Notes: generated by a model not told the origin, from the sequence alone. Positions 4,240 to 20,434 are shown, numbered from the stretch's first letter. The stretch: DNA of 32,000 bases from Geopsychrobacteraceae bacterium (GCA_963677215.1 OY781919.1:2411877-2443876); one strand, 5' to 3'. Translations and numbers: made by a program.

Positions 4240-5472
4240 CTACGTCTTAAAGTTAATATCAAAGGGGTATCCTGGATTAGAAATAATATTTTTCAGGGTT
4301 TTGAGGCTGGTTTCAAAGCTATTGTCATTGTTGAAAATTGTATATTCGGTCGGGCACTGTCTGGAAAAATGTTCAAACATCATCTGATCATATAACCGAT
4401 GCCCGGCGGCCGTAATTTCCTGCTTTCGGCCTTGGATTGTTTCATAGCTGGCAATGCAATGGATTGTCGGTGTTCTTTGGCCCAGAAAGTTTGAAACCGG
4501 ATAGAATTTTGACCAGCGTGGCTTGTCTGTCTGGCGGTGCAGACATAAAAAATCAGCCAGGCTGCGGTCATAAATCATAATCTTTTTACGGTTTGAAAGT
4601 TTTTTCAGTGTGAGCCCCAGGCAGGCACGCAGATAGATCAGTCCGGAAAACCTTTCATCAAACAGATCCCGGTTGGGGAAGATCGGATGTAACAGAAGTA
4701 ACGATATTTTGTAGAGCATGGATAGGCGGTAGAGGCGTTTTCCGCGAAAAGATTTGGCAGGTGGGGAGGTTCTCTTGGCCAATGCCATTACCAGGGAGGT
4801 TTTCCCGACCCCGTCACAGCCCATGATACACAGCATGTTTCGACCACCCTGCAATCGCTTTCGGCAGTTATTTCTCAAGGGAGTTTGCTTCGGAGGCAGG
4901 GCTGCTAAAATCAATGTCAATGTTTTCTGCAGATCCTGCTTGTTCACCTGCCCATTTTCAACCGTCCGTTGCAGAGCTTCCAGGACCAGAGTTTCGCTGC
5001 ACCTGCCCAGATAATCTTCCAGTCTCTGGTGGATGTAATTCAAGGACAGGTCTTTATTCTTTAGCGCTAGATGGTGCAGGTAAATACTGGCTTCAATATC
5101 AACCTTAATGCGGCAGATAGAGAGATCATCGTTGTTTTCGGCAGCTGCTTGCAATGCCTCATAGGTCAGGGGAACTTTTGTCCCGAACAGTTGAGGAAGA
5201 ACATACCACAGATCGAGCCTCAGGCTCTTCAGCCCGTCCCGTGAATATAAAGTCAGCATTTTTTTGCCAAATTTTCGGGCTCCGATGTGGGCGTGACAAT
5301 AACCTTTTTTGACCCAGGTGTAGGCCTCAGCAGTTAGCGCATTTATCGATTCTTCACTGGCCAGGAAATCAATATCGCCACGGTTGATGTCAGCAGCGGA
5401 AATAAGGTCTCCGCGTAGTTGAATCAACCGCCAGGGGCCTGACAGAATGTTGCTGATACATTTTTCTATCAT
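4240..5472 (-). CDS. Orphan protein: N-terminal nucleotidyltransferase-like region plus C-terminal thymidylate-kinase-like P-loop domain
   Basis: Walker A 'MLCIMGCDGVGKTSLVMALAKR', TMPK-like 'IMIYDRSLADFLCLHR'; N-terminal 'LRGDLISAADINRGDIDFL ... LRLDLWYVLP' resembles NTase-fold acidic motifs. Confidence 0.6.
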   Translation of the reverse strand: MIEKCISNILSGPWRLIQLRGDLISAADINRGDIDFLASEESINALTAEAYTWVKKGYCHAHIGARKFGKKMLTLYSRDGLKSLRLDLWYVLPQLFGTKVPLTYEALQAAAENNDDLSICRIKVDIEASIYLHHLALKNKDLSLNYIHQRLEDYLGRCSETLVLEALQRTVENGQVNKQDLQKTLTLILAALPPKQTPLRNNCRKRLQGGRNMLCIMGCDGVGKTSLVMALAKRTSPPAKSFRGKRLYRLSMLYKISLLLLHPIFPNRDLFDERFSGLIYLRACLGLTLKKLSNRKKIMIYDRSLADFLCLHRQTDKPRWSKFYPVSNFLGQRTPTIHCIASYETIQGRKQEITAAGHRLYDQMMFEHFSRQCPTEYTIFNNDNSFETSLKTLKNIISNPGYPFDINFKT

Positions 5473-7437: not shown

Positions 7438-8586
7438 TCACTTTGGCTGACTGAGCTGTTCCCGGGCGTTCTCTTCCATCTGTTCTATGGCAATGAGAAA
7501 CGATTCGGTCAGTTGCGGGTGAAGCAGTTGCCCGCTGCTCTCGGTCATGATCTGCTTGATCTGGGCAAAGGTCAGCGGCTCCCTGTAGGTCCGTCTGGTA
7601 CGCAGCGCGTCATAAACGTCGGAGATGGTCGTCATGTAACTGCAGGTATTGAGTTGCCAATGGTCCGGAGTCTGGGGATAGCCTTTGCCGTTGTAGCCGA
7701 TATGGTGTTCGTAGGCGTTGACCACGGCCAGCTTCGGCGCGCCCGGGCAGCGCAACAGATATTCGGCGCCAAGTTGCGGGTGACGTTGCATCTGGGCCCA
7801 CTCTTGAGGATCCAGCTTGGTTTGCTTGTTGAGAATGTCCGGTGAAATGAACATCTTACCGACATCGTGGAGCATCGCTGCGATGCCGATCTGATTGAGG
7901 ATCTGGCCTTCAAAGCCGAGCAGCCGGGCCTGCGCCAGATTGAGCAGGCAGATGTTGGTTGAGTGGATGTAGGCATATTCATCCATGGAGCGCAGCGGTG
8001 CCAGGGCCAGCAGGGCCGAGCTGTGGGTGCTGAAGGCTGAGACAAAATCGTTGACCAGCTCAGAGATCCCGCCGATGTCGACATGTTTGCTGCGGCCGGC
8101 GGAAGCCTGAACCTCGTAAAACCGGTCTTCACCGTGCAGGCGGATTTCTGCCGCTGTTTCGGCCTGGGGAGAGGGGGGCTTCTGTCTGCTGCGCACGGCA
8201 ACACGGCCAAAACGGATGTGTTCCGTTTTTCTCGGTTCTACTTTGCGGCTGTGCTTGCTCAGGGTTGTCGCCAGTCTGATCATCTCTTCACTAGAGACCC
8301 CGGAGCTGATTTCCAGAAAGCTGATCTGCTGGGCTGTCAGGGTTTCAATCAGCCGGTCTGTCATCATGTTGCGCGGCACCGGCTGGTCATTGAAGATCAG
8401 CTCGTTGTTGACTATCTTGAAAGTGACCATACTGTGATCATTCATCAGCAGGCGCATTTCTTCGCGAGCCTGCTGGCAGAGGTGATGGACCTGAGGGTGC
8501 TCGCTGTCGTAGAGGGAGATATTGGCCGCCGCAGTTGTGATCTGGCGGATAAAGGCGGCCAGGTATTTCTGTTCCTTGAACGTCAT
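7438..8586 (-). CDS. HD-GYP-like phosphohydrolase, module copy 1 (HD1)
   Basis: C-terminal domain: YAYIHSTNICLLNLAQARLLG, AAMLHDVGKMFISPDILNK, RHPQLGAEYL, AYEHHIGYNGKGYP, TISDVYDALRTRRTYREPLT. N-terminal ~120 aa is a separate domain shared with the neighbouring genes. Confidence 0.85.
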   Translation of the reverse strand: MTFKEQKYLAAFIRQITTAAANISLYDSEHPQVHHLCQQAREEMRLLMNDHSMVTFKIVNNELIFNDQPVPRNMMTDRLIETLTAQQISFLEISSGVSSEEMIRLATTLSKHSRKVEPRKTEHIRFGRVAVRSRQKPPSPQAETAAEIRLHGEDRFYEVQASAGRSKHVDIGGISELVNDFVSAFSTHSSALLALAPLRSMDEYAYIHSTNICLLNLAQARLLGFEGQILNQIGIAAMLHDVGKMFISPDILNKQTKLDPQEWAQMQRHPQLGAEYLLRCPGAPKLAVVNAYEHHIGYNGKGYPQTPDHWQLNTCSYMTTISDVYDALRTRRTYREPLTFAQIKQIMTESSGQLLHPQLTESFLIAIEQMEENAREQLSQPK

Positions 8587-10715
8587 TTTTGCCCCCGATC
8601 TGTCAGGCGCTGCAGCTGCTTTTCGACCAGTTCCCTTTCGGTCTTGTCGCGACCGCTCTGCAGGGAATGCAGAAGCGGTAGCACGCTGCGTCTGGGATAG
8701 CCACCCAGGGAACGGATGATTTCCAACTGAAAATCTTTTTCCCGGCGGCGGCGGAGCAGTTTCTTCTGCAGCAGTCTGGCGAGGACCGGGATGGTCTGTG
8801 GTTTGCCGATCATGCTTAGGGTCTCAAGGGTTTTTCTGCGGATCTGCAGATCCGGATCGCGATTGTGGTCGATCTGCAGCAGGAGATGCAGTTGGGCCAG
8901 AACCTTGCCGTCATGACTCTGGTCGGCGATTTCAACGGCTGCGGAGATCGATTCCCGGTTTCCACCCGAGAGGTCTTTGAGTAATTGCCGGTTGGCCATC
9001 ATCGGGTCGAAGCGGAAGATGATGCGCAGTGCTTCCTGGCGGACCTTGGGGTGCTCATGTGTTGCGAGGGGGCGGATTTCCCTGATCGGAATGGTTTCCT
9101 TGTCGAGCTTCGAGAGGATCAGCAGTACGTTGCGGACCAGATACCAGCGCTGATCCTTCAAGGTCTGGGTCAGTAGCTGAGCTGCTTTTTTGCCGAGCTC
9201 CTCCAGCAGGCGGACCCAGATCCTGCGTTTGGAGAGTTGCTTTTCTTTCCCGAGGCGGTTGATCAGCAGTTCGGCATAAGGCTCGCCAACCTCGAAGATG
9301 TAGGCACTGATCTCTCCCCCCTTTTCCGCGCCCCAGATTTCGACATGGTCAAGTACGTCGGACATGAAGAGCTCACTGGTCTGCAGGGCCAGGACGGTTT
9401 CATCCAGAAAGCGGGCATTGGCTTTGCCGCTGTAGAGGTATTCGGCCCAGTTGACAAAAATTTCGCGCAGCGTCGTGAAGTCCCCTGTATCCAGGTAGAA
9501 TCTGGCCATTTCGGTCAGGTTATGTTGCAGGCTTTTTTCCGCTTCGGAATCGACACCGTTACTGAGCATGTTGAAGATGATATTGACGCACTGATTTTCA
9601 ATCGCCAGGGTTTTCAGGCTGTTTCTCAGCTTTAGTGCGACATGTTCCGGAAGGGAACTTGTCATCTGCTGGTTGAGGATGTTTTTCAGGGTGGTCTGGT
9701 ACACATCGGGCACAAACTGGCTGTGGCTGTCTTCGAGCAGGAGAATGTCGATCTGCGCATTCAGAACATCGGTGTCGATTTTTTCAATGTCCAGTGCAGC
9801 CGGAGTCGTCAATATATCGTCGTTGTCGGCAAATTCCTCGAGCAGGTCAATAAGTCTGGCCGAGACTGTCTCCTTGTTTTGGGATTGACGATGAATGGCT
9901 GTTTTAAGCAGATGCTGCGGAAACGAATTGAGGAACTGCGAGGTCAGGTCGGGGTGTCCGGACAGGGCATTGAGGATGCTGTCGGTGAATCTTTCCTGGA
10001 TCTGCGGGTGCAGTTGCTCAACGACTTCAGCGACCTGAAGGGGAACCTCTGCTTCTTCCCTCGGTTCAGACGCAAACCTGGAAATCAGATTGCTGATCAG
10101 CGGATCCAGGTTGTCCGTGTGGCATTTTCCCTGGTTGATGGCTCTGGCGATCTCGGCACTTTCGATGGTATCGGAAAGACTATGTTTCTCATTGAGAAGT
10201 TCTGTGATGAAATCGTTCCAGGGGGAATCGCTGGAATCGCCGTCATCGGCCTGAAAGGCTCCAAAGTCGACCAGAACGATCTGAATCTGGTGGATCCCCT
10301 GTTGCTGAAGCTGTTTTGGCAGTTCCTGATTGACTCCTGTTTCGTTGCCTTCTGTGCTGAGGAGCTGATAGAAGCCGAGTACCTCTTTGGCGGAGAGGTT
10401 CCGGAAAAAGCGGATCGAGGCGATTCGGTATGAAGACAGGAATTGGGCGAAGTCGCGGATGGCTCGATTGCCGGCCTCCTGCCACTGCCCTTCAAAAAGA
10501 ATATTGTCGGGTGCGATCCCGAGGTGGATGTCCTGCCCGGACTGACAGGTTTGGGCCAAGGCGCGCAGAACCGCATCACAACTCTGGGTTAGTTGTGGGT
10601 GCCCTGGCGGATACAATTTCAGCTGACGCTGAAAAATATTGAGGTCCTGGATGAATCCGGAAAGCTGGTGGCGATTGTTTGCCGTGGCAGTTTTGGATTC
10701 TCCTGACATTAACAC
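8583..10715 (-). CDS. Large helical/HEAT-like repeat protein, module copy 1 (HEAT1); likely GTG start
   Basis: 710 aa; C-terminal repeats such as 'HEHPKVRQEALRIIFRFDPMMANRQLLKDL', 'DPDLQIRRKTLETLSMIGKPQTIPVLARLLQ', 'EIIRSLGGYPRRSVLPLLHSLQ'; GGAGG upstream of GTG 10715; 4-nt ATGA overlap with HD1. Confidence 0.8.
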   Translation of the reverse strand: MLMSGESKTATANNRHQLSGFIQDLNIFQRQLKLYPPGHPQLTQSCDAVLRALAQTCQSGQDIHLGIAPDNILFEGQWQEAGNRAIRDFAQFLSSYRIASIRFFRNLSAKEVLGFYQLLSTEGNETGVNQELPKQLQQQGIHQIQIVLVDFGAFQADDGDSSDSPWNDFITELLNEKHSLSDTIESAEIARAINQGKCHTDNLDPLISNLISRFASEPREEAEVPLQVAEVVEQLHPQIQERFTDSILNALSGHPDLTSQFLNSFPQHLLKTAIHRQSQNKETVSARLIDLLEEFADNDDILTTPAALDIEKIDTDVLNAQIDILLLEDSHSQFVPDVYQTTLKNILNQQMTSSLPEHVALKLRNSLKTLAIENQCVNIIFNMLSNGVDSEAEKSLQHNLTEMARFYLDTGDFTTLREIFVNWAEYLYSGKANARFLDETVLALQTSELFMSDVLDHVEIWGAEKGGEISAYIFEVGEPYAELLINRLGKEKQLSKRRIWVRLLEELGKKAAQLLTQTLKDQRWYLVRNVLLILSKLDKETIPIREIRPLATHEHPKVRQEALRIIFRFDPMMANRQLLKDLSGGNRESISAAVEIADQSHDGKVLAQLHLLLQIDHNRDPDLQIRRKTLETLSMIGKPQTIPVLARLLQKKLLRRRREKDFQLEIIRSLGGYPRRSVLPLLHSLQSGRDKTERELVEKQLQRLTDRGQK

Positions 10716-10814
10716 CCTGGTTCCTCCCCCCGTATACTGTTTTATTCAATAAATCCTAATTTTATGAGAATAGACCCTTTTGCAGTTTTTTAGAAGAGGT
10801 TCATTGATGTGTTG

Positions 10815-11951
10815 TTAAGTTTTTGCCATGTCCCGATCGAGCTCGCTGATCGTTCCCAGAAAATTGTAGGTCAACTGCGGATGCAGTTTGTTGCCCGCAA
10901 GGTTGAGCATGATCGAAATGATCTGGTTCAGGTCCAGGGACTCTTCGTAGGCACGATGGGTGCGCATGGCGTCATAGGTATCTGATATGGCCGTCAGGTA
11001 GGAACTCAAGTGCTGCAGCCATGGCCTTGAGGTCTGCGGGTAGCCGGCATTATCAAACCGCATATGATGTTCATAGGCGGTAATCACGGCAAGTCTGGGT
11101 ATCCCCGGGCAGCCAGTCAGATATTCGGCGCCGAGACGCGGGTGTTGCTGCATGATCTCCCATTCGGCCCCAGTCAGGGCTTCGTTTTTGGTCAGGATCT
11201 CCGGCGGAATGAACATTTTTCCAACATCGTGCAGCATTGCCGCGATACCGATGTCGTTGAGCAGTTGTCCTTCTATGCCGAGCATTCTGGCCTGGGCGAG
11301 GTTGAGCATGCAGATGTTGGTTGAGTGGGTGTAAGTATACTCGTCCATGCTGCGCAACGGCGCAATCGCCATCAGGACATCGTTCTGTGAATCGAAGGCA
11401 TTGATGAAACCGGAAACGATCTCGGAGACACCAGCGATATTCAGGGGTTTGTTCTTTCTGATCGTCTGGTAGAGGTCCATGATGCTGTCGGCTTCAGACT
11501 CGGCAATCCAGGTCAGTGGGGATACTGCCGGGCCTGATTCTTCGCCCTTGAGACGGACCTCAATCTTGCCATAGCGGATGTGCTCGGTATTGGTTGGTTG
11601 GTGCGTAGAGTTCTGGATTTTGCTGAGCAGTAGGGCAAGGCCAAGCAGTTCGTCGGCATAGATGCCATCCAGGATCTGCAGGTGTGAGACTCCGCTGCGA
11701 TTCAGGGCGCTGACAAGACGTTTGACGGCATTGCTCTGCTCGACGGGCTGATTGTCAAAAATCAGCCGGCTATCGATAACTTTCAGGACGATTTCATTAT
11801 GTTTTTTGAGCAGCTCATGGGCGATCTGCAATGCTTGGTTATTGAGGCGCAGCACCTGCCGATGGTTGGCGTGATAGAGGGATGCATTGGCGGATGCCGT
11901 GGTCAACAGGCGTAAAAAGGTCTGAAGTTGTTCCTGTCTTGAGCCGCTCAT
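10815..11951 (-). CDS. HD-GYP-like phosphohydrolase, module copy 2 (HD2), paralog of 7438-8586
   Basis: YTYTHSTNICMLNLAQARMLGIEG, AAMLHDVGKMFIPPEILTK, QHPRLGAEYL, AYEHHMRFDNAGYP, AISDTYDAMRTHRAYEES; collinear with HD1 along its whole length. Confidence 0.85.
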   Translation of the reverse strand: MSGSRQEQLQTFLRLLTTASANASLYHANHRQVLRLNNQALQIAHELLKKHNEIVLKVIDSRLIFDNQPVEQSNAVKRLVSALNRSGVSHLQILDGIYADELLGLALLLSKIQNSTHQPTNTEHIRYGKIEVRLKGEESGPAVSPLTWIAESEADSIMDLYQTIRKNKPLNIAGVSEIVSGFINAFDSQNDVLMAIAPLRSMDEYTYTHSTNICMLNLAQARMLGIEGQLLNDIGIAAMLHDVGKMFIPPEILTKNEALTGAEWEIMQQHPRLGAEYLTGCPGIPRLAVITAYEHHMRFDNAGYPQTSRPWLQHLSSYLTAISDTYDAMRTHRAYEESLDLNQIISIMLNLAGNKLHPQLTYNFLGTISELDRDMAKT

Positions 11952-14095
11952 AGGTTTGTTCTCCGTTTTTCCTGCACCTCTTTGGCGGCGTTTTTGTAAG
12001 GCCCTTTGGCCATTTCATCAAGCAGTTTGTCGGCTCCTGAGCCGGGAAATGTCAGCAGCGCATTGAGGATCTGCTGCTGCAGGGACTTCAGGTGGCGGGA
12101 CTTGAAAAGTTTCGGTCCGCTCAGCAACAGCCGGCGGAAGATGGTCAGCGATTCCGGCCGTCCACAGCGGGAGAGGGCTGCGATCACGGCTTCGACGTAA
12201 TGCAACTGCTCGGCGGTTTCGATACTCATCTCCAGCTGCCTGTGCAGCTGACTGAAGACGCCCGAATCCTGACTCAAGTGCACCAGCCCAAGAGCCGCGT
12301 TTCGCGCACTGAGATCGGCGTTCTGCAGTTCCGTGATCAGCAACCGGTTGGCTGTCGCCGGATTGCAGCGGAACAGGTTGCGGATGACCTCGGCCCTGAC
12401 TCTCTGATCGGGATGGTCTGCGTACTTCAGGTTGGCCTTGATGCTCGCCGGGGTCTGCTCTTCGCCTAAGACAATCAGCAGATTGCGTAGCAGATACCAG
12501 GGTTCAGGCCTGAGGGCCTGGAGGACCTTCTGCTGAACGTCCCCGTCAATCTTTCTGAGCAGGCCCATCCAGAGCATGCGTTCCTTCTGTTCTGTCGCGT
12601 TGGAAAGACGGTCGATGATCGGGTCGCAGTATGGTTCGCCGACGAACAGAATATAGTTGCTGATCTGCTCCCATTTCTGCTCTTCCCAGAGCTCAAAACT
12701 GTCGAGAATGTCGTTCATGAAACTGGACTGGGTGTGACCGGCAATCAACTGCTCATCGAGAATGCTGGTCTGGGCATGGTTGCTGTACAGGTAGTTGTAC
12801 CAGTTCCTGAAGACCGCCCGCAGGCTGATGAAATCACCGGTATCGGCAAAGAAACGGGAGAGCTCCATGAGGCTCTGCTGGATGTGAGATTCCTGCTCCT
12901 TGTCCAGCGGAGAGAGCAGCAGCTCGAAAATGACTGCCGCGAAATGGTGTTCGATCGACTGCTCCTCCATGTCCTGCTTCAGTTGCAGCTTTTCCGCTTC
13001 TGACATGTGGCCATGGAGGTCGCCGGCAAGCATGGTGTTGAGGGCCTGCTGGTAGCTGTCGGGAAGAAAGAGATCCTCCTGTTCTTCGCTGAACAGGGTC
13101 TCCAGCCGGGCTTTGACGACGCTTGATTCCATGCGTGGTGAGTTGAGGCGGATCTTGTTTTTCTGGTCAGTATCCGAGGCGGCCAGAACCTCGACCAGCC
13201 CTAGCAGACGCTGGGAGATCTGCAGCTGTGAACCCTGATTCGAGGCAAAGCTGTCGTGCAGTAGCCGGGGGGAAATCTTTTTCAGTGCGTTCTCTGCCTG
13301 GTCCTGATGACGGTCGATCACCTTGAGGGTGCTTTCCAGGAATGCCTGCCGGGCCCCGGGCTCAAGCTTGAGCAACAGCTCATTGAAGACCTGATCCGCT
13401 TCCGATTCCGGAGTGGTGATCAGCCGTTTTTCAACATAGTTGGACAGGGATTGCCGGCACTGCTCACGATCATCGCGGGTCCCTTTGAACCTGCTGTTGA
13501 TGATTTCGGCAATGACTGACAGGTTGCTGGAAATTTCCGAGAATCCCAGGTCGAGGATTCCCTGCTGCATGCCATAGATGAAATTTTCCCAGAGCAGTTG
13601 CTCTTCTTTCGCGTCGCCTCTTCCGACCTGAAACGCATTGTAGTCGATGGTGATGATCTGGATATGACGAATCTGGTGCTGTTCGAGCAGTTGGGCAAAA
13701 CCGCCGGAATTTTCAATGCTGATCCGGTCCGAACAGAGCAGCTTGCAGAAACAGAGCAGCTCTGCTTCTGTCAGCCCTTTTGCGAAATTGATGGTTGCAA
13801 TGCCAAGCTCGGCAAAGAAAGCGGCGAAGTCCCTGTTGGCGGGGTCGTTTTTGTCAAGCCAGGTCTGCTCAAAGAGGATTCCGGACGGGGATATGCCCAG
13901 GGTGAGTAGAGGAAAGTTCTCCATAATCAGCGCGAGTAGCGACATGGCTTTTTCGATGCTGGCCGTGATCTGGGGGTGCTCATCCGGATAGAGGGCCAGG
14001 TTGCGCTGTGCTGTTTTCAGTTCCTGCAGAAAAACAGTCAGCAGAGGACGATCCTGTCTCCTGGTGTCAGTGCTTGATATGGCGTTCCGGTTCAA
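11948..14095 (-). CDS. Large helical/HEAT-like repeat protein, module copy 2 (HEAT2); likely TTG start
   Basis: 715 aa, collinear with the 8583-10715 protein (e.g. 'YADHPDQRVRAEVIRNLFRCNPATANRLLITEL'); GAGG 6 nt before TTG 14095; 4-nt ATGA overlap with HD2. Confidence 0.78.
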   Translation of the reverse strand: MNRNAISSTDTRRQDRPLLTVFLQELKTAQRNLALYPDEHPQITASIEKAMSLLALIMENFPLLTLGISPSGILFEQTWLDKNDPANRDFAAFFAELGIATINFAKGLTEAELLCFCKLLCSDRISIENSGGFAQLLEQHQIRHIQIITIDYNAFQVGRGDAKEEQLLWENFIYGMQQGILDLGFSEISSNLSVIAEIINSRFKGTRDDREQCRQSLSNYVEKRLITTPESEADQVFNELLLKLEPGARQAFLESTLKVIDRHQDQAENALKKISPRLLHDSFASNQGSQLQISQRLLGLVEVLAASDTDQKNKIRLNSPRMESSVVKARLETLFSEEQEDLFLPDSYQQALNTMLAGDLHGHMSEAEKLQLKQDMEEQSIEHHFAAVIFELLLSPLDKEQESHIQQSLMELSRFFADTGDFISLRAVFRNWYNYLYSNHAQTSILDEQLIAGHTQSSFMNDILDSFELWEEQKWEQISNYILFVGEPYCDPIIDRLSNATEQKERMLWMGLLRKIDGDVQQKVLQALRPEPWYLLRNLLIVLGEEQTPASIKANLKYADHPDQRVRAEVIRNLFRCNPATANRLLITELQNADLSARNAALGLVHLSQDSGVFSQLHRQLEMSIETAEQLHYVEAVIAALSRCGRPESLTIFRRLLLSGPKLFKSRHLKSLQQQILNALLTFPGSGADKLLDEMAKGPYKNAAKEVQEKRRTNL

Positions 14096-14135: not shown

Positions 14136-14165
14136 AGTATAACATTTATTTTTTTCAGGGTTAAA
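14136..14165 (-). promoter_or_regulatory. Possible sigma70-like promoter for the HEAT/HD operon
   Basis: Minus-strand TATACT (14141-14136) with TTTAAC (14165-14160) at 18-bp spacing, upstream of the start at 14095; weak -35. Confidence 0.25.
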
Positions 14166-14257
14166 CAAGAAAGGCATTTGTCAGGACTATTGCATTTCTG
14201 CGCCATTGCGTGCTAGATTTCCGCCGATATGGACACTCATTATTTAATGAATGGCTT

Positions 14258-15223
14258 ATGAGCCCGCAGACGCATTTTGATGTTGGTGATGCGGACCTGG
14301 CCCAGCAGCTTTTTGGCCGGCAGAATAAGCATCTAAAACAGATAGAAAAGAAACTCGGCATTCGGGTCGGCAGCCAGGGGACGGTTATCCACCTCTCCGG
14401 CGATGAGGCTCAGGTCGGGGTTGCCAGGCGCCTGCTTGAAGAGCTGTGCACCCTGCTTCGCGAGGGGATGCCGCTCTACCCGGCTGATGTCGATTACGCC
14501 ATTCGCATCCTCTCTGCGGATTCTTCCGCGTCTCTGAAAGATATCTTCTTTGATACTGTCTTCGTTTCGGCCCGCAACAAGATGATTGCGCCGAAAAGCA
14601 TCGCCCAGAAGAGTTATGTTGACAATATTCGTGAAAACCATGTTGTCTTCGGTGTCGGCCCGGCCGGAACCGGCAAGACTTATCTGGCCATGGCGATGGG
14701 CGTGGCCTCCCTGCTGCGTAAGGAAGTCAGCCGGATCATGCTTGTCCGACCTGCTGTCGAAGCCGGGGAAAAGCTCGGTTTTTTGCCTGGCGATCTGGCC
14801 GAGAAGGTCAATCCGTACCTGCGTCCACTCTACGATGCCCTTTATGACATGCTCGATTTTGACAAGGCCAGGGAGTTGGTTGAAACCGGTATTGTCGAAG
14901 TAGCCCCTCTGGCCTTCATGCGCGGCCGGACCCTGAATGACGCTTTTGTCATTCTTGACGAAGCGCAAAATACCACCGCAGAACAGATGAAGATGTTTCT
15001 CACCCGCCTCGGTTTTGGTAGCCGGGCCGTCATTACCGGGGATGTGACCCAGGTCGATCTGCCCCGGGGGCAGCAATCGGGGCTGCTGCATGCGATGGAA
15101 GTGCTGGTCGGTGTGCGCGGGATTGAGTTTACCTATTTCAGCGATCGGGATGTCGTTCGTCATCCGATTGTGCAAGCGATTGTTCAGGCCTACCAGAGAG
15201 CTGAAAAGCACGAAGACTCCTGA
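14258..15223 (+). CDS. phoH: PhoH family ATPase (YbeZ-like)
   Basis: 'VVFGVGPAGTGKTYLAMAMGVASLL', 'AFVILDEAQNTTAEQMKMFLTRLGFGSRAVITGDVTQVDLPRGQQSGL'; ORF opens at 14210 but ATG 14258 (MSPQTHFDVGDADLAQQLFG) fits better. Confidence 0.93.
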   Translation: MSPQTHFDVGDADLAQQLFGRQNKHLKQIEKKLGIRVGSQGTVIHLSGDEAQVGVARRLLEELCTLLREGMPLYPADVDYAIRILSADSSASLKDIFFDTVFVSARNKMIAPKSIAQKSYVDNIRENHVVFGVGPAGTGKTYLAMAMGVASLLRKEVSRIMLVRPAVEAGEKLGFLPGDLAEKVNPYLRPLYDALYDMLDFDKARELVETGIVEVAPLAFMRGRTLNDAFVILDEAQNTTAEQMKMFLTRLGFGSRAVITGDVTQVDLPRGQQSGLLHAMEVLVGVRGIEFTYFSDRDVVRHPIVQAIVQAYQRAEKHEDS

Positions 15224-15266
15224 TGCGAGCTCTGGTGGAGGGCGGCCTTCATCTTTTTGAGGACAT

Positions 15267-17678
15267 ATGACGAAAGACGAGAAACAGAAAGCCCTGCAGA
15301 GGCGAAGCGCCTTTTTCAGCGATGGTGTTCAGGGTTTGCGGAACCGCAAGGGGGCCAACCTTGGAGGCTGGCTGCTGCTGATCGTTGCCGTGCTGTTGAC
15401 CTTTATCATCATACCGAAGGGTGGGCTGATTCCGGATTACTATGCTCCCGGCGATGTCGCTTCCCGCAATATCAAATCGCCCCGCGATCTGCTGGTCGAA
15501 GACCTGCCTTTGACAGAAGCCAAGCAGCTTGAGGCTGCCAACGCGGTTGCTCTGGTCTATCAGTTTGATGTGGCTGGTGGGAGTCAGGCTGTTGAACGGC
15601 TGGACCGGGGGCTGCGCGGCCTGTTGAATTATCAGCTCAGCAGCAGGGCCCTAAATGGACAGGATGTTCTTCCCCAGCTGGAGACCGACCTTGGCATCCC
15701 GCTGACCAGTGAAGAGTTTTTGCCTTTGCTGAAGCTGCCCCTGACAATCGAGCTGATCGACCAGATCAGGTTAGCTTTAGAGACTGTTTTTCACCGGCCG
15801 ATCGTTGCCAATCAGCAGATCTATCAGAGCGACCAGGACAAGGGACTGGTGGTTCTCGATTGGGCGAGTGGAGAGCCGCTTGAGTTGAAGATTGGTGATC
15901 GGGTGATTGGTCTCACCCAGGCTCTGAGCGAAGTTCAGACACAATTGGGGCAGCTCATGGGGCTTGCGGAGGGGCAGCGCCAGGTTCTGGCGCGCCTCGT
16001 TCAGCAACTGCTGCGGCCCAGCCTGATCTACGATCAGGATGAAACCGAAGCACGACGCCAGTTGGCCCGCGAGCAGGTCGCGCCTGTTCTGTTTCAGATC
16101 AAGAAGGGGGAGATGATCGTCCGCGAAGGGGAACGTATCTCCGCCGATCAGATCCTCAAGCTCAAGGCTATTCGTAATTCCGGACTCGACAACCGTAACC
16201 TGCAGACGGCCGCGGGGCTGTTGATCTGCATCCTGCTGCTGATCTATGTCGGCTATCATTTTGCCAACGGCAACATCAGTAAGTTTCGTCCAGATCAGCG
16301 TGACCTGCTGTTTCTGTCGAGCGTTTTTCTGGTCTATTTCGTTCTGGTCAAGGTCTCGATCCTGATTGTTTCCGCTATCGGCAACAGTTTTACCTACATC
16401 GATTCAACAGCTTACCTCTATGCGGTCCCTTTCGCGCTGGGTGCCATGCTGGTGCGGATCGTTCTCAATTCCGAGACCGCGTTCATCTTTTCCGTCGGCT
16501 GTGCCGTGCTGGTCGGTATTATCATGGGCAATAGCCTGCTGATGGCTCTGTTTGTCCTGATCGGCAGTCTGGTCGGGGCGCACGGAGTCCGGCACTGTCA
16601 GCAGAGGACCAGGCTTTATCGGGCCGGGCTGTGGATCGGCCTGACCAACGCCGCTTTGCTGCTGGGCATGCATTTTCTGTCGGGACGGGTTTTCGAGCTG
16701 CAACTGCTGTGGAAGCTTGGTCTCGGGTTTTTCGGTGGTATCGCCAGTGCCGTTTTTGTCAACGGCACGGTCCCGCTGGTCGAATCCTTCTTCAAGTACA
16801 CGACCGATATCAAGCTGCTTGAACTGGCCAACATGAACTCACCGGTATTGCGCCAGCTGATGATCGAGGCTCCCGGCACCTATCATCATTCGATCCTGGT
16901 CGGCAATTTGGCCGAGGCCGGGGCCGAAGCGATACGGGCCAATCCGTTGCTGGCTCGGGTCGCAGCCTATTATCATGATATCGGCAAGATCAAGAAACCG
17001 CTCTATTTTATCGAGAACTCTGGCGGTCAGCGAAACAAGCATGACAAACTGGCGCCGTCGATGAGTGCCCTGATCCTCACCTCACACGTCAAGGACGGAG
17101 TGGAACTGGCCCGCGAGCACAAGCTGGGATCGGAGCTGATGGAAATCATCCAGCAGCATCACGGCACCTCGCTGATCAAATTTTTTTATGACCGCGCCAA
17201 GAACCTGTCCGACCCGGAGGTCCATCAGGTTGATGAGCGTGATTACCGCTATCACGGGCCGAAACCTCAGACTCGGGAAGCGGCGCTGATTATGCTGGCC
17301 GATGCGATCGAGGCCGCCAGCCGGACACTGACCGATCCGACCCCGGCACGGATTCAGGGGATGGTGCAGAAGCTGATCAACAATATCTTTATTGATGGCC
17401 AGCTCGATGAGTGTGATCTTACCCTGAAGGACCTGAATCTGATCGCCAGGAGCTTCAATCGTGTGCTGTCGAGTTCATTCCATCATCGCGTCGATTACCC
17501 CGAACCCGTACATATCGTCAAGGACAAGGCCGAGCCTGAGGACAAGGTGGCCGTCAAAGAGAAAGTGAAACAGAAGAATGCGAATTCAGATCGACAACCG
17601 GCAGAACAAACAACGGATTCTGAAGCGTCCCCTGCGCAAGATAGCCCAGAAGATCTTAGACGTCTCGGGATATCCTAA
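15267..17678 (+). CDS. pgpH: 7TM-HD family phosphohydrolase, PgpH/YqfF-like
   Basis: 803 aa; N-terminal extracytoplasmic region, multi-TM block, HD domain 'GTYHHSILVGNLAEAGAEAIRANPLLARVAAYYHDIGKIKKPLYFIEN ... IIQQHHGTSLIKFF ... ALIMLADAIEAASRTL'. Confidence 0.9.
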   Translation: MTKDEKQKALQRRSAFFSDGVQGLRNRKGANLGGWLLLIVAVLLTFIIIPKGGLIPDYYAPGDVASRNIKSPRDLLVEDLPLTEAKQLEAANAVALVYQFDVAGGSQAVERLDRGLRGLLNYQLSSRALNGQDVLPQLETDLGIPLTSEEFLPLLKLPLTIELIDQIRLALETVFHRPIVANQQIYQSDQDKGLVVLDWASGEPLELKIGDRVIGLTQALSEVQTQLGQLMGLAEGQRQVLARLVQQLLRPSLIYDQDETEARRQLAREQVAPVLFQIKKGEMIVREGERISADQILKLKAIRNSGLDNRNLQTAAGLLICILLLIYVGYHFANGNISKFRPDQRDLLFLSSVFLVYFVLVKVSILIVSAIGNSFTYIDSTAYLYAVPFALGAMLVRIVLNSETAFIFSVGCAVLVGIIMGNSLLMALFVLIGSLVGAHGVRHCQQRTRLYRAGLWIGLTNAALLLGMHFLSGRVFELQLLWKLGLGFFGGIASAVFVNGTVPLVESFFKYTTDIKLLELANMNSPVLRQLMIEAPGTYHHSILVGNLAEAGAEAIRANPLLARVAAYYHDIGKIKKPLYFIENSGGQRNKHDKLAPSMSALILTSHVKDGVELAREHKLGSELMEIIQQHHGTSLIKFFYDRAKNLSDPEVHQVDERDYRYHGPKPQTREAALIMLADAIEAASRTLTDPTPARIQGMVQKLINNIFIDGQLDECDLTLKDLNLIARSFNRVLSSSFHHRVDYPEPVHIVKDKAEPEDKVAVKEKVKQKNANSDRQPAEQTTDSEASPAQDSPEDLRRLGIS

Positions 17679-18036
17679 GGGCGAACTGTCGATCGTTCTG
17701 CTCGACAACGCCGGGATTCAGGAGGTCAACCGCGATTACCTGGGGCGCGACTGGCCGACCAACGTCATTTCCTTTTCGATGCTTGAAGGTGAGGGGGCCG
17801 GTATCCAACCCGATCTGCTCGGCGATGTGATTATCTCGACTGAACGTACGGCCAGCGATGCCGACGAGGCCGGGATCCCTTTTGAGCATGAACTCTGGTT
17901 CCTGCTACTGCACGGCATCCTTCATCTGATCGGTTATGATCATGAGCGGGGTAGTGAAGAGGACGCTGCGCAGATGGAAGCCAGGGAAAAAGAAATCTTT
18001 TCCATACTTGTTAACGAATTTTCTATTTCTGCATAG
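17578..18036 (+). CDS. ybeY: Endoribonuclease YbeY
   Basis: 152 aa; 'IQIDNRQ' N-terminus, 'RDWPTNVISF', metal site 'HGILHLIGYDHE'. Confidence 0.93.
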   Translation: MRIQIDNRQNKQRILKRPLRKIAQKILDVSGYPKGELSIVLLDNAGIQEVNRDYLGRDWPTNVISFSMLEGEGAGIQPDLLGDVIISTERTASDADEAGIPFEHELWFLLLHGILHLIGYDHERGSEEDAAQMEAREKEIFSILVNEFSISA

Positions 18037-18059
18037 ATTGCAAGGAGCTCGAAGATCTG

Positions 18060-18920
18060 GTGGATAGTGACAATGCGCAAGATTCTGACAGTTGGTTGAA
18101 GCGTCTGACCGATAAACTGGCCCTGCGTCCCAAGGCCAGCACTGAAGAAGATCTGCATGAAATGATCGATGCCTCGGAACAGCAGGGGATCATCGATGAA
18201 GAAGAAGGGGAGATGCTCCAGTCGATTCTGGAGTTGGATGAAACAATCCTCCGGGAGATCATGGTGCCGCGGACCGATATGGTCTGTGTCGACAGTGATG
18301 CTCCTCTCAGCGCTGTACTTAAAGCTATTCTCAAGACCGGTCATTCCCGGATTCCCGTCTATCGTGGCAATATCGATAACATCATCGGCCTGGTCTACGC
18401 CAAGGATCTTTTGCGTTACTGGGGGAGAGAGATTGACAATATCGTCCTCGGCGAAGTTCTGCGTCCTCCCTATCTGGTCCCCGAATCGAAGACCGTCAGC
18501 GACATGCTCAAGGAGTTTCAGGAGACCCGCGTCCATATCGCCATCGTCATCGACGAGTATGGCGGTACCTCCGGGCTGGTGACGATTGAGGACCTGCTCG
18601 AAGAGATTGTCGGCGATATTCAGGATGAGTACGACCGAGAAGACGAGTGGCTGATTGAAGAACCTGACGGAACCCTGCTGGTTGATGCCCGCCTGAATAT
18701 CGAAGAATTTGAAGAATATTACGAAGTTGAGGTTCCTCGCGAAAAATTCGATACCATCGGTGGTTTTATCGTCGAGCATTGCGGCCGGGTTCCGGCTGTT
18801 GGCGAGCGAATCAAGGTCGAGAATTTCGAGATGCTGATCGAGCAGGGGAACCAGCGGGTCATTCGCCAGGTGCGGATCTTTCCGCAGCAGGTCGCTGAGG
18901 CAGAAGGAAGCGACTCTTGA
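18060..18920 (+). CDS. corC: CorC/HlyC family CBS-domain protein (YbeX-like); GTG start
   Basis: '[54 protein letters not shown]', '[34 protein letters not shown]', CorC_HlyC C-terminal domain. Confidence 0.9.
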
Positions 18921-20434
18921 AGTATTTTTCCCAGATTGACCGGACCATCCTGATTTCTGCTCTTTCCGGGGTGCTGCTGGCGCTTGCTTTTCCTCGCCCC
19001 GATTTGTTCTGGCTGGCCTGGATCGGTCTGATTCCTCTGCTGCTGGTCATGGGGAAACGTCCTTTTGCCAGTGGTTTTTCTGCCGGAATCGCCTTTTTTG
19101 CCGTCGTTCTCTACTGGCTGAATATCGTGATGACCAACTACGGTGGTCTGATGCCGGTCTTTTCCGCGATCGCCTACCTGATGCTGGTCATCTATCTGGC
19201 GTTCTATTTCGGGATCGCCACCCTGACCAGCTGGGGGTTGAAAAAGCGTTACCGGATTCCACTACTGCTCAGTTTTCCCTTTTTCTGGGTTGCTCTCGAA
19301 TACCTGCGCGGTCTGATTTTCAGCGGGTTTCCCTGGGCTCTGCTCGGTTATTCCCAGCAGGATTTTTCGCTGGCCATCCAGAGTGCCGATGTGACGGGGG
19401 TGTATGGCGTCAGTTTCATCCTGGTTGCGGTCAATTGCGCCCTGGCCTGGCTGATTGTTGAACCGCGCAAACGGAACGCTTGGATAGGCGCCGTGGTTGT
19501 CGCTGTGCTGCTGGCCGGCCACCTTGGTTATGGGCACTGGTGTGAGCGGACAAAAAGTGATGAGCGCGAGGAAAGCCTGCGCATCGCCCTGATTCAGGGT
19601 AATATTGAGCAGGGGCAGAAGTGGTTGCCGGAAAATCGTCAGCAGACGGTCGATTTCTATCGTGATCTCTCCTTGCAAGCAGCCGAGCAGCCAGTTGACC
19701 TGTTGCTCTGGCCGGAAGCGGCGACCCCGTTTTTTCTGCAGGATGACGGTGCGCTGCAGCGCCAGGTCAAGGCCGTGCCTGGTGAGGCGCAGGCCGCACT
19801 GCTGGTCGGTAGCCCGTCTTATGAAGCAGATGGTGAAGGGCAGGTGAGCTATTACAACAGCGCTTATCTGTTCTCGCCGCAGGGGGAAAAGATCGGTCGC
19901 TCCGACAAGCTGCACCTGGTGCCGTTCGGGGAATATGTGCCGCTTAAATGGTTACTCGGTTTCCTTGATAAGCTGGTCGTCGGCGCCGGCGATTTCTCGT
20001 CCGGAAAATTGCAGCCGCTTGTTTATGCTGACCACAGGCTCGGAGTGCTGATCTGTTATGAAGCGATCTTTTCCGAGCTGGCCAGGACCCAGGTGCGCAA
20101 AGGGAGCGATCTGCTGATCAATCTGACCAATGATGCCTGGTTCGGCCGCTCCTCGGCACCTTATCAGCACCTTGCCATGGTGCGTTTTCGCTCCATCGAG
20201 AACAGGGTGTGGACGGCGCGCACGGCCAATACCGGAATCTCGGCCTTTATCGCCCCTTCGGGAAAAGTCATCAGCGCGACCCCGCTGTTTGAACGCCTGC
20301 AGCAGCGTGGCATCGTCGGGCTTGGGGCAGAGCAGACCTTTTATACCCGTTACGGTGACGTTTTTGCCCTGGCTTGCCTGATGCTCTTCTGCTTTGCCTG
20401 CTTTGCTCTGACGCGCAAGAAAAACAAAGACTGA
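18917..20434 (+). CDS. lnt: Apolipoprotein N-acyltransferase
   Basis: 505 aa; multi-TM N-terminus then nitrilase domain 'IALIQGNIEQGQKW...LLLWPEAATPFFL...KLHLVPFGEYVP...VLICYEAIFSELAR...LINLTNDAWFGRSSAPYQHLAM'. Confidence 0.95.
   Translation: MKYFSQIDRTILISALSGVLLALAFPRPDLFWLAWIGLIPLLLVMGKRPFASGFSAGIAFFAVVLYWLNIVMTNYGGLMPVFSAIAYLMLVIYLAFYFGIATLTSWGLKKRYRIPLLLSFPFFWVALEYLRGLIFSGFPWALLGYSQQDFSLAIQSADVTGVYGVSFILVAVNCALAWLIVEPRKRNAWIGAVVVAVLLAGHLGYGHWCERTKSDEREESLRIALIQGNIEQGQKWLPENRQQTVDFYRDLSLQAAEQPVDLLLWPEAATPFFLQDDGALQRQVKAVPGEAQAALLVGSPSYEADGEGQVSYYNSAYLFSPQGEKIGRSDKLHLVPFGEYVPLKWLLGFLDKLVVGAGDFSSGKLQPLVYADHRLGVLICYEAIFSELARTQVRKGSDLLINLTNDAWFGRSSAPYQHLAMVRFRSIENRVWTARTANTGISAFIAPSGKVISATPLFERLQQRGIVGLGAEQTFYTRYGDVFALACLMLFCFACFALTRKKNKD

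Follow-up and report, generated by a model that had tools for sequence, protein, structure and literature searches.

An uncatalogued N-terminal domain is common to HD-GYP proteins and their co-translated HEAT-repeat partners in a Geopsychrobacteraceae bacterium

A 32,000-nucleotide (nt) stretch of DNA from a Geopsychrobacteraceae bacterium (GCA_963677215.1, OY781919.1:2411877–2443876), here called the window, carries a module of four genes on the minus strand (positions 7438–14095) whose products all begin with the same type of N-terminal domain (N-domain). Two of the proteins are HEAT-repeat proteins and two are HD-GYP proteins, and the genes are arranged as two tandem pairs, each with the HEAT gene upstream and the HD-GYP gene downstream. 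Pair A consists of HEAT2 (11948–14095; 715 amino acids (aa), TTG start) and HD2 (10815–11951; 378 aa), and pair B consists of HEAT1 (8583–10715; 710 aa from a GTG start) and HD1 (7438–8586; 382 aa). The HEAT-type proteins consist of the N-domain, a helical middle region, and a C-terminal solenoid, which is HEAT/ARM-like in HEAT2, whereas in HD1 and HD2 the N-domain precedes an HD-GYP phosphodiesterase domain. Within each pair the start codon of the HD gene lies inside the end of the HEAT gene, in an ATGA stop/start overlap at 11948–11951 for HEAT2/HD2 (reading ...cctATGAgc...) and at 8583–8586 for HEAT1/HD1 (reading ...aaaATGAcg...).

The window contains exactly four copies of the N-domain. 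In HEAT2 it occupies residues ~10–164 (13604–14068) with the motif LALYPDEHPQI, and in HEAT1 residues ~12–162 (10230–10682) with LKLYPPGHPQL. In HD2 it covers residues 1–140 (11532–11951) with ASLYHANHRQV, and in HD1 residues 3–138 (8173–8580) with ISLYDSEHPQV. Hidden Markov models (HMMs) of the respective class score 169.8 bits on residues 10–164 of HEAT2, 140.6 bits on HEAT1, 126.5 bits on HD2, and 130.6 bits on HD1. The peptides on which the initial annotation had based its alignment by eye are present in all four minus-strand open reading frames (ORFs), which exist as described. Its estimate of the domain length also agrees with the data, the common core being ~115–130 aa and the full N-domain spanning 125–150 residues across the four proteins.

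The central claim of that annotation, that one homologous domain is common to enzymes and repeat proteins, is confirmed by cross-class HMMs, HHalign, BLASTP, and the order of structural elements in AlphaFold2 (AF2) models. When enzymes were compared with repeat proteins by BLASTP, the aligned region was confined to the N-termini. HEAT2 and HD1 are 22% identical over 115 aa (E = 1.5e-8), and the E values are 5e-5 for HD2 and HEAT1, 3e-3 for HEAT2 and HD2, and 0.023 for HEAT1 and HD1. Class profiles were built from 84 HEAT-type and 12 HD-type relatives that had been sorted by their C-terminal regions, with the window proteins and their close relatives left out. The HEAT-type N profile detected HD1 with 64.4 bits and HD2 with 59.4 bits (residues 6–120), and the HD-type N profile detected HEAT2 with 48.4 bits (residues 13–122) and HEAT1 with 47.3 bits (residues 12–124). 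As a control, 2000 shuffled N-termini gave top scores of 11.8 and 10.9 bits. The profile-profile comparison proposed in the annotation was significant, with HHalign giving a probability of 99.4% and an E value of 4.3e-21 over 130 columns that include the β-strands. Partner N-domains were also examined for a closer similarity than that between non-partners, which would indicate gene conversion, and the similarity within a pair was not higher.

A chance or compositional resemblance, for example between two amphipathic helices, would need no true common domain. The pairwise identities of just 19–23% leave room for such a reading, and the helical hairpin alone can attract repeat proteins, as seen for P0138 (2094 aa, TPR-rich), which matched only the hairpin (positions 7–47 of the N-domain profile) eight times. 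However, neither the gap between the cross-class scores and those of the shuffled sequences nor an HHalign match that runs through the β-strands fits with this explanation, and the same is true of the identical element order in both AF2 models and of the invariant Tyr and His described below. The chance reading is thus already refuted, and we give it virtually no weight.

The AF2 model of the HD1 N-domain, computed from a 46-sequence alignment, has a predicted local distance difference test score (pLDDT) of 93.7 and a predicted template modelling score of 0.86. Its elements are α1 (residues 3–25), α2 (31–47), β1 (53–59), β2 (62–65), α3 (74–85), β3 (90–94), α4 (99–109), α5 (111–115), and β4 (124–127). 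In the model of HEAT1 the corresponding helices comprise residues 10–34, 40–59, 84–94, 109–121, and 132–138, and the strands residues 62–68, 71–74, 98–104, and 144–148; the N-domain within this full-length model has block pLDDT values of ~84–96. Both models follow the order α-α-β-β-(β)-α-β-α-α-β, so that the comparison of predicted folds put forward in the annotation gives the same answer as the profiles. The hairpin formed by α1 and α2 is similar to a TPR-like helical hairpin.

Across 69 HD-type and 148 HEAT-type N-domains, which are otherwise ~20% identical, three positions stand out. The Tyr of the "LYPxxHPQ" loop is conserved in 100/100% (HD-type/HEAT-type) and the His four residues after it in 99/98%, and both are situated in the loop between α1 and α2. 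A Glu at the start of α4 is conserved in 77/92%. Each class has residues of its own as well, "NIARR" in α1 of the HEAT type and "R..L.TA.AN" in the HD type.

The N-domain is not catalogued in Pfam, NCBIfam, or the PDB sequence set. No Pfam family matched the N-domain in the four full proteins (E ≤ 1), and when 46 diverse N-domains were scanned singly (E ≤ 10) there was no common family, none matching more than 2 of the 46. No NCBIfam model matched the N-terminal part, and all PDB sequences, searched with a profile, yielded noise only, with a top match at E = 0.0046 to 35 residues of a designed protein. Foldseek of the HD1 N-domain model against the PDB yielded nothing better than E = 0.17 at a template modelling (TM) score of ~0.2, and the weak matches were mostly GAF domains. 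These do not place the N-domain among the GAF domains, as the GAF chains were found at E 0.17–4, TM ~0.2, and a root mean square deviation of ~13 Å, and neither GAF nor DUF3369 was among the Pfam matches listed for the 46 N-domains. The 120 closest homologues carry only HD_5/HD (PF13487/PF01966) as precomputed Pfam annotation, and their names say no more than "HD domain-containing protein" or "HD-GYP domain-containing protein".

The C-terminal parts of HD1 and HD2 are, by motif, those of ordinary HD-GYP family members, i.e. class II cyclic di-GMP (c-di-GMP) phosphodiesterases. HD1 and HD2 score 51.8 and 56 bits against HD_5 (PF13487; cutoff 27.2), with Pfam E values of 1e-13 for HD1 (HD_5) and of 5.5e-15 (HD_5) and 4.6e-9 (HD) for HD2. 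Residues 205–376 of HD1 match the HD-GYP structure of PmGH (4MCW) with E = 6.3e-19, and further HD-GYP structures were matched with E = 4.4e-15 (5Z7C) and 3e-14 (4R8Z). HD1 contains HDVGK at residue 240, HHIGYNGKGYP at 294, and DVYDA at 323. HD2 contains HDVGK at 241, HHMRFDNAGYP, in which GYP is kept and the preceding Gly is replaced by Asn, and DTYDA at 324. With the HD, HH, and GYP motifs and the distal Asp conserved, the metal and GYP motifs are intact, and both proteins are expected to be active phosphodiesterases for c-di-GMP (or cyclic GMP-AMP).

HEAT1 scores 43.5 bits against HEAT_2 (PF13646; cutoff 27.7) and HEAT2 scores 26.0 bits, marginally under the cutoff, while relatives score far above it. 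The AF2 model of HEAT1 (mean pLDDT 82.7, from a 50-sequence alignment) falls into three regions: a confident N-domain (residues 10–148), a helical middle of low confidence (~165–350), and a very confident α-solenoid (357–709) that is all helical with pLDDT values mostly above 90. Foldseek of this model found alphaRep, the PP2A A subunit, β-catenin, and importins at E values of ~1e-5 to 1e-4. There were 66 PDB matches at E ≤ 1e-3, all of them HEAT, ARM, or alphaRep proteins. As modelled, the solenoid is of a generic protein-binding scaffold type.

Metagenomes were scanned with the HEAT-type protein as the query (15-sequence alignment), which gave 78 loci with identities down to ~22%. An N-domain gene lies directly downstream of the HEAT-type gene in 64 of the 69 loci that have enough downstream sequence, and it continues into HD-GYP wherever it is complete. 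A 4-nt stop/start overlap like that at both window junctions is present at 60 of 75 junctions in related loci. In the reverse direction, a HEAT gene encoding 714–723 aa was found directly upstream of all three distant HD-type representatives examined. The HEAT-type and N-HD-GYP genes are a near-obligate, translationally coupled pair, and their pairing is conserved across many environmental bacteria. In some of the metagenome contigs the HEAT-type gene is split into 2–4 consecutive ORFs (L003, L008, L016, L021, L051, L060, and L066), which may be due to frameshifts or assembly errors.

The two pairs in the window are related to each other. BLASTP gives 30% identity between HEAT1 and HEAT2 across the whole protein and 46% between HD1 and HD2, and the region is therefore a unit of two genes that has been duplicated in tandem. 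Two pairs in tandem also occur in several relatives (L001, L003, L008, L009, and L018). The HEAT paralogues and the HD paralogues have congruent identity matrices. Pair A of the window clusters with L003 (upstream, A pair), L002 (A-type HD), and L005 and L013 (their single pairs), and pair B clusters with L002 and L003 (downstream, B pairs in both). From these congruent groupings it follows that the pairs arose by an old duplication of whole units, which diverged as such without exchanging partners.

The wider distribution of the N-domain was determined by searching 1.84 billion cluster representatives (50% identity) exhaustively with a profile. This search gave 383 matches at E ≤ 1e-10, 7 at E ≤ 1e-30, and 2795 at E ≤ 1e-3, a tier that contains some false positives, probably including proteins like P0138. 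The best 150 matches comprise 86 HEAT-type proteins (~720 aa), 17 HD-GYP-type proteins (~385 aa), and one protein of 524 aa that matches both C-terminal classes; the rest are mostly fragments. A word-indexed protein search returned 2 matches with the four N-domains and none with the 46 diverse N-domains.

Besides the two classes present in the window, the N-domain occurs in larger fusions. Proteins of ~1400 aa with the order GGDEF, AAA_16 (STAND NTPase), N, N, and HEAT, and with an AGDEF or GGDEF motif, are represented by P0049, P0067, P0097, P0099, and P0108. The two N-domains in these proteins are ~20–35 residues apart. There is also a split form, in which a GGDEF-AAA_16 gene overlaps an N-N-HEAT gene by 4 nt; at these fused or split loci (L081, L084, and L085) no HD-GYP gene was found nearby. 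In the tandem subfamily the loop reads LYPxxS, with Ser in place of His. The two copies were considered as one HEAT-type and one HD-type domain, but the HEAT-type profile scores higher on both of them, and the tandem therefore arose by an independent duplication. A link to defence systems, prompted by the STAND fusions, was also considered and was rejected, as PADLOC found nothing.

Two further groups carry the N-domain without the partner gene. In P0145 and P0154 (649 and 716 aa; locus L082, 2132–4282) the N-domain, with the motif MYSAEHPA, heads a REC domain and a SpoIIE (PP2C) phosphatase, and there is no HEAT-type neighbour. The N-domain therefore also occurs outside c-di-GMP enzymes. The second group consists of distant N-HEAT proteins of 762–779 aa that have no downstream HD-GYP gene (L075, 4381–6720; L077; L078; L079, 5959–8247). 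Their genes are flanked by a BamD/TPR-LptD_N-like gene on one side and a radical SAM gene on the other, and in L079 an FtsZ gene follows just past the radical SAM gene.

Each pair thus represents a conserved two-gene operon, in which the first gene provides a protein of ~715 aa with the N-domain, helical middle, and HEAT/ARM solenoid, and the second gene, coupled through the ATGA overlap, provides the N-domain with HD-GYP. In the proposed mechanism, the two N-domains, one on each chain, would associate as a hetero-pair of homologous domains, and through this N:N association the solenoid protein would act as a stoichiometric regulatory or scaffold subunit of the phosphodiesterase, as the A subunit does in PP2A. 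A ligand of the solenoid or of the N-domains could then be relayed through the N:N pair so as to switch or localize the hydrolysis of c-di-GMP. The two paralogous pairs of this genome would represent two insulated channels. We consider the chances of this model, in which an active HD-GYP enzyme that degrades c-di-GMP has the solenoid protein as its regulatory or scaffold subunit through N:N pairing, evenly balanced. The functional part of the initial annotation, a common interaction or sensory domain with possible homotypic heterodimerization, is supported indirectly by four results, namely the near-obligate gene pair, the 4-nt overlaps at most junctions, the duplication of the window pairs as units, and the tandem N-domains of relatives. 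Overlapping stop and start codons are typical of subunits that are made in a fixed ratio. The strongest indirect argument in favor of N:N pairing is the tandem N-N fusion, an arrangement of the Rosetta-stone type that would support it, as the c-di-GMP enzymes that have the module contain two N-domains in either case, one per chain in the HD-GYP system and two in tandem in the GGDEF-STAND proteins.

Several observations weigh against this model. The invariant Tyr and His and the conserved Glu are suggestive of a ligand-binding or functional site more than of a simple dimer interface. The N-domain is also found partnerless, in the REC-SpoIIE phosphatase and in HEAT proteins without an adjacent HD-GYP gene. 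Neither HEAT N-domain is more similar to the N-domain of its own partner than to that of the other pair, and the family set had been retrieved with a mixed profile, so that the class profiles are not fully independent.

Two other readings account for parts of the data. The N-domain could be a cytoplasmic sensor with a Tyr/His(/Glu) binding site for a small molecule, nucleotide, or metal, acting independently in each protein, in which case the partners would have a signal in common and no N:N interface. The near-invariance of these residues across both classes agrees with this, as do the solo N-HEAT proteins and the fact that the weak, insignificant Foldseek matches are mostly to GAF sensor domains. 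The N-domain also precedes different outputs, namely HD-GYP and the REC-PP2C of P0145 and P0154, a placement that is typical of input domains, and the N-termini of HD-GYP proteins have been argued to be input domains (Galperin and Chou). In contrast, the HEAT-type protein lacks a recognizable output domain to control, and the tandem subfamily has Ser instead of the His. Independent sensing also leaves unexplained why the genes are a near-obligate, translationally coupled pair and why each c-di-GMP enzyme comes with two N-domains. We regard this explanation as possible but rather unlikely. PAS and GAF domains both pair and sense, so that sensing and pairing are not mutually exclusive.

Alternatively, the N-domain could serve for homodimerization only, and any contact between the HEAT protein and the enzyme would be made by the solenoid. 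HD-GYP enzymes function as dimers, a solenoid offers a generic surface for protein binding, and the N-domain is found in unpaired proteins. There is also a precedent in PA4108, for which Galperin and Chou report the suggestion that its N-terminal domain, DUF3391, promotes the active dimer. Nevertheless, the tandem N-N arrangement within one chain suggests that two copies make up one unit, and the strict co-occurrence of one N-domain per partner would be an unexplained coincidence, which makes this alternative improbable. Returning to N:N pairing, a broader formulation would combine it with sensing. Under the working name LYP-H domain, the N-domain would be a new α/β fold that acts as a pairing and sensing module, coupling a solenoid receptor or scaffold to c-di-GMP enzymes both in trans, in an obligate two-subunit HD-GYP holoenzyme, and in cis, in the tandem N-N of GGDEF-STAND cyclases. 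This broader formulation is put forward tentatively, with less than even confidence.

Pairs A and B are separated by a spacer of 99 nt (10716–10814, minus strand) with a GGAGGA ribosome-binding site ahead of HEAT1 and with no terminator-like site found in it. The start of HEAT1 is ambiguous between the GTG at 10715 (710 aa) and an ATG two codons later at 10709, which is used in the public gene call P0004 (708 aa); for HEAT2 an identical protein is present in the public collection as P0005. A promoter-like site lies 5' of HEAT2 (14136–14164, minus strand; TTAACC, 17 nt, TG-TATACT) as a consensus match only, and a promoter and terminator scan of the region gave site counts at chance level.

Housekeeping genes are present on both flanks. 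The gene for an EttA-like ABC-F protein lies downstream of the module. Upstream and divergent from it is a cluster encoding PhoH, a PgpH-like 7TM-HD protein, YbeY, CorC, and Lnt (14210–20434, plus strand), followed by KdsB, PyrG, KdsA, and KdsD. Between an SSF symporter gene and the EttA-like gene there is an ORF of 410 aa without a Pfam match (4240–5472, minus strand). Genes or ORFs of similar size, compared by size and position only, are found at the same place in L001 (13122–14357, 411 aa) and L002 (6205–7431, 408 aa, no Pfam match). A third conserved gene around the pair was searched for and none was found across clades, only clade-specific synteny. EttA, PhoH, and PgpH adjoin the pair in closer relatives, where synteny with the module extends to PhoH in 13 related loci, to PgpH in 10, and to EttA, downstream, in 16; other genes are found there in the remaining loci. 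Because it is limited to the closer clade, this neighborhood looks like lineage synteny rather than a functional link. A Geopsychrobacteraceae metagenome-assembled genome carries all four genes in the same synteny, and its HD1 is 89% identical. The closest named homologues are from Malonomonas rubra, Desulfuromusa kysingii, and Pelovirga, which places the source within the Desulfuromonadales.

HD-GYP proteins are the less understood class of c-di-GMP phosphodiesterases. According to the main survey of the family, most of them have undefined N-terminal regions and the signals are unknown (Galperin and Chou). One such region now corresponds to a distinct and widespread domain that is common to a co-translated HEAT-solenoid partner, and the same module is wired to GGDEF-STAND cyclases. 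A search of the literature on HD-GYP proteins with HEAT, solenoid, or adaptor partners found nothing relevant. What is new here is the uncatalogued domain, the two-protein architecture built on it, and the link to GGDEF-STAND cyclases, and the conserved pairing points to a two-subunit signalling enzyme that has so far not been described. If N:N pairing is true, it would provide a concrete model of a phosphodiesterase built from two subunits and of the specificity with which paralogous pairs in the same cell choose their partners, and it would add a candidate new fold to the c-di-GMP toolbox. If pairing is combined with sensing, the N-domain would represent a new and widespread input system for c-di-GMP synthesis and degradation alike. 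Cultured carriers that permit experiments are Malonomonas rubra DSM 5091 and Desulfuromusa kysingii.

Among known systems, DUF3391 (PF11871; the Bd1817 family with PDB code 3TM8, PA4108, VC2497, and BB_0374), the one N-terminal domain of HD-GYP proteins that is well known, is similar in that it is a cytoplasmic N-terminal domain of ~120 aa that precedes HD-GYP and is of unknown function. It has also been reported fused to SpoIIE, and a SpoIIE fusion was found for the N-domain here too. However, DUF3391 consists of four β-strands followed by two long helices, with an S-helix in 3TM8, and has conserved Gly, Trp, and Met residues (Galperin and Chou), whereas the N-domain opens with two long helices, continues as mixed α/β, and carries the invariant Tyr-x3-His loop, so that the topologies differ. 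PF11871 did not match the four full proteins (E ≤ 1) and was absent among the 25 listed of the 28 families matched by the 46 diverse N-domains (E ≤ 10), and 3TM8 was not in the top 50 Foldseek matches of the N-domain model. No HEAT partner carrying the same domain has been described for DUF3391.

The solenoid is comparable with the PP2A A subunit, alphaRep, and PBS-lyase-type HEAT proteins, which are alike in having an α-solenoid, over the C-terminal ~350 residues of HEAT1. PP2A is served by its HEAT-repeat A subunit as a scaffold, and the proposed parallel is that of a HEAT scaffold as the stoichiometric partner of a hydrolase. In contrast to these proteins, the bacterial protein has an additional N-domain and helical middle, and the likeness is that of a generic repeat fold only, with TM scores of 0.2–0.3 over the full length. 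STAND NTPases with C-terminal repeat sensor arms offer a second parallel, as the N-HEAT module in the GGDEF-AAA_16/STAND-N-N-HEAT relatives is situated at the position of the sensor repeats, whereas the window proteins have neither an NTPase nor a cyclase.

The enzymes are comparable with PmGH (4MCW), which has the same catalytic domain with conserved metal ligands and GYP. As in HD-GYP proteins of the PmGH/RpfG type, where an N-terminal regulatory domain controls HD-GYP, the catalytic domain of HD1 and HD2 is preceded by a further domain, and RpfG has been reported to act also through protein-protein interactions (Galperin and Chou). In contrast to REC- and GAF-headed HD-GYP proteins, the input is here neither REC nor GAF but an uncatalogued domain, a second copy of which is carried by a separate solenoid protein that is co-translated with the enzyme.

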